A stretch of 4,376 bases of DNA from a virus (lineage: Duplodnaviria; Heunggongvirae; Uroviricota; Caudoviricetes). Shown piece after piece: positions 1-3,000 of this stretch. The stretch lies in IMG/VR virus record IMGVR_UViG_2609460354_000009. One strand, written 5' to 3'. Every line of letters starts with the position of its first letter. Within the stretch, counting starts at the first letter, position 1. The position numbers are program-made.

Positions 1-3000
1 CTGGCTGAAGTACGGGCGCAGGGCGTGGATACAGCTATCGAGCACCTGCATAAGAAGTTTAAAGGAACTGTGCTTGTTGGCGTCCCGGTAATGGCGTTGG
101 AGTATTTAGCCGCAGAGCTTCGCAAAGGAGGCAACCAGTGAGCGAAATTAATTACCAGGCACTGCGTGAGGCAGCAGAACGTGCAATTCCAGCAATGGAA
201 CGCCTGTTAATGTTGCCAACTGATGATGATTTGTTAAGTGAACAGGAACTTAAAGATTACGGTGTGGATATTGATGCGCTCAATGCCTTCAAATTTCTGA
301 CCGGACCAGAAACCGTGCTGGCACTACTGGATGAACGGGAAAGGAACCAGCAATACATCAAACGCCGCGACCAGGAGAACGAGGATATTGCGCTAACGGT
401 AGGGAAGCTGAGAGTTGAGCTTGAGGAAGTAAAACAACACGCTGAAGAATTATCCGAAACCAAGGCTGTTCGTAACCAATGGCGGCCAGATATTTGCCCA
501 ATAACCGGACGTGCATTTTTCATGTGGATTGAGCATCCAACATTGGGGAATGTGCCGACATATGGTGGCCCATTAGATAGTTACACCATTCCAACAAAGG
601 ACGGTGACGGTGAGTTTTCATGTGAGCGTTACGATCATGATTTTGGCGGTTGGGTAGAAAGCGAATGTCTTGGGTTATATCTGATTGATGATAGAGAACA
701 ATGCAGGGTCTACGAACTGGAGGAACGCGTTAAGGAACTGGATGCTCGGGAAATATCGCTCCCGGAACGTAGCAGCATGCTTCATCGAACAGATTTTCAC
801 GATGATTACCAAACGGTAATGGCATACAAAGTTTCTGAAGTCATCGCTGCAATCCGCGCCGCTGGCATTCGCATCAAAGGAGAGTGAGATGAACGCTATA
901 ACCAAAGAACGTATCAAATTATTCATTAAAAATCCGCTTGATAACGGACTTACTCGTGGCGAACAAATGGAACTGGCACGAATTGCTCTGGCATCGCTGG
1001 AAGCAGAGGCAGTTATGTTCTGTATATCAGGACAAAATGTAGATTCAGAAGAACATGTATCAACCAGCAAAGCGGTTGTTGATGCCTGGGTTGAAGAATG
1101 GAATCAGGTTGACGGAAGTCCTGGCGAACCACTGTACAAAACTATGCCACTCTACTATCACGCTGCCTTGCCAGCGCCGGTAGTGCCGGATGAAATGTAT
1201 TGGCAGGATGCGCCAGTTGAAGGCAGCAGCAAAGCGGCTGCATACGCTACAGGCTGGAACGCCTGCCGCGCCGCTATGCTTCATGGGAAAGGAGAGTGAT
1301 ATGGCAACTTTAACAAAAAAAGAACGGGCATGGTTGAACGAATTACAGGACGTTCTTGATCGCTGCCCATCACCGAAAAAAATTGGTTTTTACACCATTG
1401 GCGATAAAAGCATTTACCTGTATGACCTGCGCCGCATGGATGAAATCATGGAGGCTCTTGATAATCGTTCGTCAATGGATTGGTGTGTTGCTGTCCATGA
1501 TATGAATGCAGGGTTTGATGAAAAGATTTTGTTCCCCTCATCAGTTGAAAGCACTGCGGGTTAAGGAGTAACACATGACCACTATTACCAAAGAACGTAT
1601 TGAATTGTTCATTAAAAATCCGCTTGAAAACGGGCTTACCCGTGGTGAACAAATGGAACTGGCACGGATTGCGCTGGCATCGCTGGAAGCAGATCCAGTT
1701 AAACGAGTTAACTCAGATCAGATGCGCCGAGTCTGCTTAGAAGCTAATCGCCATTTAGATAAATATGACGCGATGGCGAAAGAGGTAAATAAGTTGCTTG
1801 GACGCATCGCCCCGCCAGCGCCGGTAGTGCCGGAAGAAGCAACTCCGGAAAACGTAGAAATGCTCTCTGGCTATGTTTCCACGTACAAATTAACCGATAG
1901 CGAGCGCGATATTGCTGCCGAAATATGGAACGCCTGCCGCGCCGCCATGCTTCAGTCCGGAAACTTTCGGGAAAACAAGAATTCGTCAACCAATAATTTT
2001 CGGGAAATCGCGGAAACGTCAACCAACTATCCGGCAATTCCTAGTGAGGTGTTGTCCGCAATCCTGAAGGTTGCCAGGATTCGTGCCGATTTCGATGATT
2101 TTGACGGTGACAGGCGAGGTATCGGTGATTGTCTGGATGAGGCTGAGCAAGAGCTTATCGTTACCATTAACAAATATGCCAGTCAGTTGGCAGCAGAACC
2201 TATAGCGCCTAATGACGTTCGAGAGCAGACAGCCATTCCACAAGTTCCGGTAACTCCGGATGGTTGGATAAGCTGTAGTGAGCGAATGCCGGACGACAGG
2301 CAGGAGGTGAATCAATGAGCTGGCCTGATGCAATCGTAACTCTGGGGGTGGTATTCGCAGCAGCGTTTGTTGTGTTCTCGATTTGTCGATGGGGATAACC
2401 ACATGTTCGCTTTGATTCAACGCGGTCAGATATACACGGACAGAGCTGGATACCCCGTGGTGATTACTCGCATCACTGAGCGCTCAGTGTTCTTTCGACG
2501 GATGGACGGACGATCCGGGCGGGTACGCATTGGTGAGTTAAACTGCCTGTTCGAACATATTGACCACCAGGAGTACCGCAAAATTCTCGCGGACACTGAG
2601 CAGGAAAAGCACCTGAAAAAATTACGAGCCATAAAAAGGAAGTAAAGAATGAATAAAGCATTTGAACGATGGGTCCACCAGCGTTACGGCAATCGCTATG
2701 ACCTGACGCGAGATGTTGACGGCTTCTACTGTCGTGAAGTTGTGAAGCGAATGTTTGAAGTGTGGTGCCACTGCCGTGGATGAAAATTTTATGAGGTTGG
2801 CATGCAGACAATCATCTATCAGATAACCCCCAGCAAATGGTGTACGGAGAGAGTCCTCATTGCATCAACAGGGCTAAAGCCTGGCACCATTGAGCGGGCA
2901 AGAAGAAAGTCATGGATGCAGGGAAAAGAATACCGCCATTACGCTGTAGAAGGTGATCCGGGGCACTACAGTGAATGCCTGTACAACATCGAAGAAATTA

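Follow-up and report, generated by a model that had tools for sequence, protein, structure and literature searches.

The micro-open reading frame (micro-ORF) at positions 2315–2398 of the Caudoviricetes record IMGVR_UViG_2609460354_000009, 27 codons long, is on comparative sequence evidence a genuine, selectively maintained protein-coding micro-gene. We analyzed the whole 4,376-nucleotide (nt) stretch, here called the window, which covers the end of a lambdoid prophage nearest to int and has all of its genes on the plus strand. We consider it likely that the micro-ORF is a gene for a small inner-membrane peptide, belonging to the early-left (int-proximal accessory) operon of the phage and made by translational coupling. 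Its family, with products of 27–28 amino acids of the form M-[STN]-W-P-[ED]-A ... G11 ... A15 ... Y-S-I-C-R-W-G-stop, is common in phages of Escherichia coli, Shigella, and Salmonella, including classic Shiga-toxin (Stx) phages.

Selection on the reading frame

Evidence for coding came from variation among homologous alleles, which combine a conserved start, stop, and length with an excess of synonymous change in the frame. A motif scan of IMG/VR that demanded an intact start and stop yielded nothing but true family members, in 210 places with 36 peptides and 58 nucleotide alleles (later 81). Across these 35–36 peptide variants and 58–81 alleles, every frame was open. Frame, length, start, and stop were maintained down to ~62% nucleotide identity (62%–73% among diverged alleles), and the spacing from W3 to RW25/26 was constant across peptide variants. 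Selection tests used the motif-free codons 7–24. The ratio of non-synonymous to synonymous substitution rates (dN/dS) was 0.33 in pooled pairwise comparisons and 0.34 among twelve representatives less than 90% identical to each other. Of the substitution events counted on a neighbor-joining tree, 73 were synonymous and 82 non-synonymous; with 0.286 as the synonymous fraction expected, this gives a tree-based dN/dS (omega) of ~0.45 (P = 8e-7). Tree omega in the other two forward and two reverse frames was 1.1–1.7, and one other forward frame was intermediate (0.59) in the pairwise test. Diversity at the three codon positions was 0.20, 0.14, and 0.37, so that variation was concentrated at the third positions of one frame. 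Replacements compatible with a membrane segment made up 74 of the 82 non-synonymous events (90%, compared with 74% expected; P = 2e-4).

The reading frame has also been kept largely free of interruptions. Neutral simulation on the same tree gave a mean of 20 out of 81 alleles with an in-frame stop, and none was seen, an outcome reached in 43 of 2,000 simulations (P ~0.02). A less biased retrieval, by the upstream junction alone, recovered 297 copies with homologous downstream sequence, among which 288 were uninterrupted 27-codon ORFs, two had no stop codon, and one had an in-frame 4-codon deletion. The initial annotation of this DNA had proposed to weigh conservation of the ORF against conservation of the nucleotides, and had named frameshifts or stops amid conserved nucleotides as the pattern that would speak against a gene. 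Such changes broke only six of the 297 copies (2%), and together with the omega value this low frequency favors coding.

Among 80 loci anchored on the DUF4222 gene that lies downstream in the window, the sole disrupted copy (L198, ~1412–1500) had an extra G in a GGGGG run at codons 10–12. The extra base may reflect either a sequencing error in the homopolymer or a true frameshift.

Translation start and predicted membrane helix

The start of the micro-ORF has the features of a coupled initiation site. Its ATG (2315–2317) overlaps the upstream TGA (2316–2318) as ATGA, and the AGGAGG of the Shine-Dalgarno (SD) sequence AGGAGGTGA ends at a functional spacing of 7 nt from this ATG. Pairing of AGGAGGTGA with the 13-nt 16S tail was predicted at -17.3 kcal/mol, ranking first among the nine gene starts of the window (next, -14.4 kcal/mol), and pairing with the 9-nt anti-SD at -11.6 kcal/mol, equal first with the Ea22-like gene. 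The initial description of this SD as the strongest in the window thus holds with the longer tail and becomes a tie for first with the shorter one, and the overlap of start and stop behind a strong SD is consistent with its proposal of a coupled start. A sequence scan found no promoter or terminator at or flanking the micro-ORF.

The downstream gene may depend on the micro-ORF in turn. The sole SD-like element of the DUF4222 gene, GGGGA, is located inside micro-ORF codons 26–27, and no gene start in the window has a weaker one (-5.5 kcal/mol). Because the DUF4222 start is 4 nt past the micro-ORF stop and has this weakest SD, translation of the micro-ORF probably also hands ribosomes on to DUF4222 in this window.

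The product was first described as essentially one transmembrane-length hydrophobic helix, and hydrophobicity scales support this as a prediction. Residues 6–24 are the best 19-residue hydrophobic window, with a Kyte-Doolittle mean of 2.63 (2.1–2.6 range) and a summed apparent free energy of insertion (dGapp) of -1.85 kcal/mol for the window variant on the Hessa scale with manually entered scale values. In 29 out of 35 variants there is an acidic residue at position 5 and an Arg at position 25, with no charge between them. The product is therefore predicted to have the single bilayer-spanning segment and the charge asymmetry of a small single-pass membrane protein. Because of the contrast between acidic residue 5 and Arg25, the positive-inside rule predicts a likely topology of N-terminus out and C-terminus in. 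Trp3 and Trp26, 23 residues apart (~35 Å as a helix), would fit the two membrane interfaces. Under general helix rules, residue 2 (S/T/N) and residue 5 (E/D) would resemble an N-capping box, and Gly27 would be a typical C-cap. The best-conserved motif-free positions are G11, A13, A15, A17, Y21, S22, I23, and C24, and G11-x3-A15 and A13-x3-A17 are small-xxx-small packing motifs.

These features suggest how the micro-gene might work. Its expression would come from the early-left transcript once the phage infects or the prophage is induced, and both ribosomes ending at the upstream TGA and ribosomes drawn by AGGAGGTGA would start at ATG 2315. The product would be one helix consisting of an N-cap-like [STN]-W-P-[ED], a hydrophobic run of ~19 residues, many of them small (G11, A13, A15, and A17), and a closing Y-S-I-C-R-W-G. 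A 27-residue chain is complete while still within the ribosome tunnel, so insertion would have to be post-translational; the peptide would then enter the inner membrane in the predicted orientation, with Trp3 and Trp26 at the interfaces. While the phage infects or is induced, it would most likely act by packing its helix against that of a membrane protein of host or phage, or against another copy of the peptide, and the micro-ORF stop would pass ribosomes to DUF4222. As for the mode of action, modulation of a membrane protein is a tentative suggestion and a membrane-perturbing or toxic oligomer is unlikely; other roles are quite conceivable, although somewhat short of probable.

Several more familiar identities were rejected. 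For a holin or antiholin, the C-terminal tail is too short (only three residues, R-W-G) and the location is int-proximal, beside DUF551, DUF4222, xis, and int. A leader peptide or attenuator was rejected as there is no terminator-like site at 2398–2403 and no stable structure, and as the whole peptide is conserved while the downstream genes differ. An RNA element is also not supported: Rfam matched nothing in the window even with E values allowed as high as 1, and folding at the micro-ORF was weaker than that of shuffled sequences (z = +1.8 for the plus strand and +1.0 for the minus strand). A transporter subunit like KdpF or OadG was rejected because the best sub-threshold NCBIfam scores, 14.7 bits for KdpF (TIGR02115) and 14.8 bits for the OadG-related NF040909, compare with curated cut-offs of 26.85 and 25.

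Genomic contexts and alternative explanations

The micro-ORF is surrounded by different genes in different phages. In 119 distinct 484-nt contexts from IMG/VR and public records, AGGAGG or GGAGGA nearly always precedes the ORF, and in 107 its start overlaps, as ATGA, an upstream ORF of at least 40 amino acids. Every record inspected had the ORF beginning on the stop of the preceding gene and without a gene annotation of its own. Upstream partners were DUF551 proteins in ~60%, with the full domain ending just before ...QEVNQ*, and in ~30% a family without a Pfam match that ends in ...EDILR* or ...EDVLR*; further partners were 933W L0139, a phi467-type protein, and an Av-05 protein. Downstream, DUF4222 was found at exactly 4 nt in 47 out of 113 contexts and mok/hok at 130–320 nt in 28, with several other neighbors elsewhere. 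Where the junction is of the main type, the gene before the ORF has its final five residues (Q-E-V-N-Q) encoded by the SD and its spacer, and the traveling unit would thus be the SD, the ATGA, and the 27 codons.

Two further arrangements were observed at these junctions. In 933W-type Stx phages (L007, AF125520, 1201–1650; L010; L011), the micro-ORF is followed by the gene of the sokW antisense RNA at ~90 nt and by mokW/hokW at ~155 nt. The 933W copy occupies 58829–58912 of AF125520, on the complementary strand. At 25 places with the junction GGAGGATRTTTTRCG followed by ATGA (e.g., among L294–L345), unrelated stop-rich DNA (ATGAATATTTAGACTAAAG...) or other ORFs replace the micro-ORF. Since the ...EDILR* gene and ATGA are followed there by unrelated sequence, the replacement breakpoint falls exactly at the start codon.

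A number of observations weigh against a gene for a small inner-membrane peptide. An omega of 0.45 is moderate constraint only, and an equally low value (0.40) was found in the antisense frame that shares the wobble position. W3 and P4 are not invariant, with W3R, P4S, or P4R in ~20 junction-retrieved copies. Predicted membrane insertion is marginal over the variants as a group, with a median energy of ~0 kcal/mol. A specific binding surface within the membrane should show as one conserved face of the helix, but the corresponding test at 100 degrees periodicity was negative (P = 0.65); conservation peaks at a period of ~2 (G11, A13, A15, A17) and toward both ends of the peptide. The alleles are all from a limited set of hosts, and many are closely related. 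Finally, the peptide strings were not found in the supplements of the ribosome profiling (Ribo-seq) papers on EDL933 and Sakai, which used uninduced cultures (PMC4765031, PMC5597208).

Instead of a modulator, the peptide could be a host-killing or membrane-depolarizing toxin, type I- or Kil-like in effect, in which an oligomer with a Gly/Ala-rich face permeabilizes the inner membrane in lytic growth. Its size, hydrophobicity, and G11/A13/A15/A17 pattern are like those of pore-forming small toxins, the glycine-zipper model PF19029 gave weak sub-threshold matches (E = 0.04–0.07), and restriction of expression to a repressed early operon would make toxicity bearable. However, the likeness to type I toxins raised in the initial annotation does not extend to the locus, which lacks the defining features of this class. 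The window contains no Rfam antitoxin, no minus-strand promoter-like site or antisense RNA was found near 2315–2398, there is no independent repressed transcript, and the SD is strong, unoccluded, and coupled. The core is also without polar or charged residues, and conservation is highest at the interfacial ends rather than at a pore-lining face. In addition, the gene is kept in phage-plasmids and a virulent myovirus, and a second toxin would be redundant because a real hok/sok module often adjoins it. On balance, we think a toxin unlikely, and the host killing or division inhibition that the initial annotation brought up is speculative.

The micro-ORF could also be a coupling device only, with a strong SD that loads ribosomes for the downstream gene and a peptide that has no function. 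The weak SD and close start of DUF4222, at a spacing that is exact in the 47 contexts noted above, fit this idea, as does a region less structured than shuffled controls, which would be expected of an open initiation zone. But the peptide is under purifying selection with conservative replacements, and its exact length and termini are kept where the next gene is 130–320 nt off (mok/hok) or unrelated. A pure relay needs neither a fixed number of 27 codons nor a hydrophobic helix. Conservation of the ORF is no weaker beside a distant or different downstream gene; we therefore interpret the relay as not being its sole role, and find a device without a functional peptide very unlikely.

Still less probable is a non-coding mosaic linker, that is, a recombination boundary between lambdoid accessory modules, or a decayed remnant of the DUF551 C-terminus, with the ORF incidental in either case. 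The micro-ORF does lie exactly at junctions of differing upstream and downstream modules, the 25 replacements right after ...EDILR*/ATGA suggest breakpoints there, and the DUF551 domain in the window is truncated. A linker does not account for third-position variation in one frame, for an omega below 1 on the tree only in the forward frame and its mirror, or for a frame and length kept at 62%–73% nucleotide identity. The remnant version, which the initial annotation had offered as a frameshifted alternative, was rejected because full-length DUF551 proteins finish on that tail too, with the micro-ORF after them. In these proteins the full domain (profile positions 1–68) ends 3–4 residues before ...QEVNQ* or ...QEVK*, and the tails read ...PPQEVNQ* or ...PPQEVK*. 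The ORF also follows at least four unrelated gene families, and no DUF551-peptide fusion was present among the database proteins examined. Programmed frameshifting from DUF551 was likewise rejected, with no slippery heptamer at AAT CAA TGA and an ATG of the ORF's own at ideal SD spacing. We note that linker and coding roles are not mutually exclusive.

That the actual gene is an antisense ORF on the opposite strand is scarcely credible: the wobble-sharing reverse frame is open in 57 out of 58 alleles with a low pairwise dN/dS (0.27), and in the window none of the three reverse frames has a stop within the micro-ORF (minus-strand shadow ORFs of 30 and 133 amino acids, 2312–2404 and 2019–2420), but in most of 89 contexts no start codon precedes the region in the wobble-sharing frame, the end of this frame ranges from -20 to -299 nt, into unrelated genes, no SD or promoter is found on the minus strand near the micro-ORF, and the low omega of the frame is the expected mirror of forward third-position variation. 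The openness arises because a hydrophobic forward ORF has few TAN and CAN codons. A start, stop, length, and SD that are all fixed belong to the forward ORF alone. The strand is thus assigned by architecture, not by dN/dS, and a reverse-frame omega that mimics purifying selection is a practical trap for dN/dS-based calling of small ORFs.

Starting again from a coding micro-gene for a small inner-membrane peptide, one broader proposal can be made, although we hold it to be doubtful. A portable cassette (the SD in the last five codons of the preceding gene, the ATGA, and the 27 codons) may both mark recombination boundaries and encode a peptide aimed at a host inner-membrane machine, such as FtsH/HflKC, a component of DNA entry or transport, or the divisome. 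If so, the peptide would affect lysis-lysogeny, superinfection exclusion, or induction of Stx phages and P1-like phage-plasmids.

Distribution, neighboring genes, and known small proteins

Homologues are widespread within a narrow group of hosts. A tblastn search gave full-length matches in 70–93 phage records, including 933W, VT2-Sakai, Stx2-I/II, Min27, ArgO145, and the virulent myovirus Av-05. In BP-4795, YYZ-2008, JLK-2012, and phi467, the same gap encodes the 28-residue MMNWPEAFTAVGVAIAVAFILYSLFRWG, 48% identical to the window peptide, and the additional residue of this 28-codon clade is an N-terminal Met. Matches were found in 181 plasmids, nearly all of them non-mobilizable and ~95–100 kb, the size of phage-plasmids, and the single plasmid examined was an IncY phage-plasmid. 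At the DNA level, 1,025 out of 5,426 complete E. coli genomes matched, which is an upper bound as a few matches span flanking sequence alone; the number of copies in E. coli is roughly 1,300. A scan of 185,579 species-representative genomes, which used the N-terminal motif only and may have let remoter relatives escape, found six loci, all in Escherichia and Shigella apart from one 369-bp contig. The only K-12 prophage examined, CPS-53, where yfdS is a DUF551 gene, has no copy.

Two records point outside these hosts. The 369-bp contig (L216, JQCU01000559.1, "Acinetobacter idrijaensis") and "Actinobacillus phage vB_Apl-pPE4" (L010, PP818812.1), in which a Hok gene is present, both encode peptides identical to variants of E. 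coli phages (ArgO145; the IncY phage-plasmid). This suggests host misassignment or contamination, not a broader host range.

As the initial annotation had expected, the micro-ORF is missing from standard annotation. The Prokaryotic Genome Annotation Pipeline (PGAP) leaves the 84–87-nt gap empty in the RefSeq records of BP-4795, YYZ-2008, and JLK-2012, and likewise in the E. coli chromosome that shows 99.8% identity. We note that the family is not universally unannotated, because some submitters' own annotations call homologues as "hypothetical" or "prophage protein" (ASL58468.1, AOM45384.1); in addition, WP_250221393.1 is a 45-residue PGAP call that over-extends a family member. The exact peptide variant of the window is absent from a 15-billion-protein collection. 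Searches of Pfam, PHROG, and NCBIfam gave no match above threshold and only generic transmembrane noise, and PADLOC and Protein Data Bank (PDB) sequence searches returned nothing. Full-text literature searches for the peptide strings, and in papers on DUF551 and DUF4222, found no mention, and a term search of a structural survey of the exo-xis region found neither a transmembrane ORF nor DUF551 mentioned. The peptide was also not found in the supplementary files of the microproteome catalogue of Fesenko et al. (PMC11188072).

Database clusters could mislead automated annotation of this family. Clusters at 90% identity group the 27-residue peptides with DUF551 proteins of 121–185 amino acids, and a number of fragments of the peptide carry the name "DUF551 domain-containing protein, partial." The shared clusters suggested peptide-DUF551 fusion proteins (121 and 185 amino acids), and this was rejected when the sequences were read and the peptide was not inside them. 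We regard both the mixed clusters and the "partial" names as artifacts.

The other features of the window are listed together with the micro-ORF in Table 1. A searched 601-bp segment has 99.8% identity to a prophage adjoining mlrA in E. coli 266917_2, and in this E. coli relative (L001, 5298–6166) the prophage integrase adjoins mlrA (yehV) and yohO. The mlrA locus is a classic integration site of Stx phages. The O104:H4 strain 2009EL-2050 carries identical copies of a 131-bp query.

Table 1. Features of the 4,376-nt window, with coordinates, strand, and basis of assignment.
Feature	Position	Strand	Basis
Ead/Ea22-like gene	138–887	+	
Two ORFs without a family	889–1299 and 1301–1564	+	
Upstream partner gene (247 amino acids), annotated DUF551 domain-containing	1575–2318	+	RefSeq annotation; Pfam
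SD sequence AGGAGGTGA, inside the last codons (Q-E-V-N-Q) of the upstream gene	2302–2310	+	Anti-SD pairing energy
Micro-ORF, 27 codons and TAA, product MSWPDAIVTLGVVFAAAFVVFSICRWG	2315–2398	+	ORF call, homologues, selection tests
TGA stop of the upstream gene, shared with the micro-ORF start (ATGA)	2316–2318	+	
Predicted transmembrane helix core AIVTLGVVFAAAFVVFSIC, codons 6–24, between W3 and W26	2330–2386	+	Hydrophobicity scales
DUF4222 gene, start 4 nt past the micro-ORF stop	2403–2645	+	Pfam DUF4222, E = 8e-14
ORF of 44 amino acids, annotated hypothetical (WP_001030157.1)	2649–2783	+	
Excisionase gene	2802–3056	+	
Tyrosine integrase gene	3090–4376	+	

The genes around the micro-ORF show signs of shuffling below the level of the gene. 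In the upstream protein, residues 230–245 match only positions 1–16 of the 68 in the Pfam DUF551 profile, and this truncated match passes directly into ...DDRQEVNQ* (2262–2318 region). It looks as if most of the domain was lost by internal deletion, while the tail with the micro-ORF SD was retained. The truncated allele is frequent among IMG/VR loci. The N-terminal module ITKERI-LFIKNPL-NGLTRGEQMELARIALASLEA is found in nearly identical form in ORF 889–1299 and in the DUF551 gene (889–1020 and 1575–1706), and both also have a WNACRAAML motif (~1250–1285 and ~1925–1955), which also occurs in the Av-05 gene preceding the micro-ORF copy of that phage. Judging from these shared stretches, modules smaller than genes appear to have been shuffled mosaically among the three. 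Farther downstream, the 44-residue ORF has a Cys/His-rich C-terminal stretch, CREVVKRMFEVWCHCRG, and occupies the same position in BP-4795, YYZ-2008, and JLK-2012; Pfam and PADLOC searches with it gave no match.

The micro-gene is present in textbook Stx phages (933W, VT2-Sakai, BP-4795), in ~180 plasmids, and in up to about one-fifth of complete E. coli genomes. Adding it would fill a systematic gap in the RefSeq records checked, Pfam, PHROGs, and NCBIfam. It may influence early phage-host interplay in pathogenic E. coli, and its strong SD, purifying selection, and many natural alleles make it a candidate for researchers on small proteins and phages. It would also be an example of a micro-gene that moves with its own ribosome-binding site inside the tail of variable upstream genes.

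Among known systems, the micro-ORF resembles the early effectors of lambdoid phages (lambda Kil, cIII, orf60a, orf61, orf63, orf73, and ea22) in being small, non-essential, and mosaic. All of these proteins have been described before and are either soluble or amphipathic, whereas the product of the micro-ORF is a predicted helix of the integral-membrane type. It shares its neighborhood with the exo-xis ORFs, accessory genes of the early-left region that are flanked by the recombination genes and by xis/int (PMC8614690, PMC3824215). The intergenic microproteins of Fesenko et al. (PMC11188072) are similar in being short, hydrophobic, and selection-supported ORFs between annotated genes of Enterobacteriaceae; a strictly intergenic screen could miss the micro-ORF because its start overlaps the upstream gene. 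Type I toxins (Hok/Gef, TisB, DinQ, ShoB, and Ibs) are also small, hydrophobic, helical peptides, but the micro-ORF has no antisense RNA, promoter of its own, occluded ribosome site, sequence similarity, or sok-like Rfam overlap.

Small membrane proteins of E. coli such as KdpF (29 amino acids), MgtS (31), PmrR (29), AcrZ (49), and CydX (37) bind and tune larger membrane proteins, and some of these small proteins are translated from within operons beside their partner. The micro-ORF differs from them in having no sequence relationship to any of the five, in being phage-borne, and in having no fixed neighboring membrane-protein gene. It is like them in its size, its single predicted helix, its very short tails, its interfacial Trp and Arg, and in having been missed by annotation pipelines.

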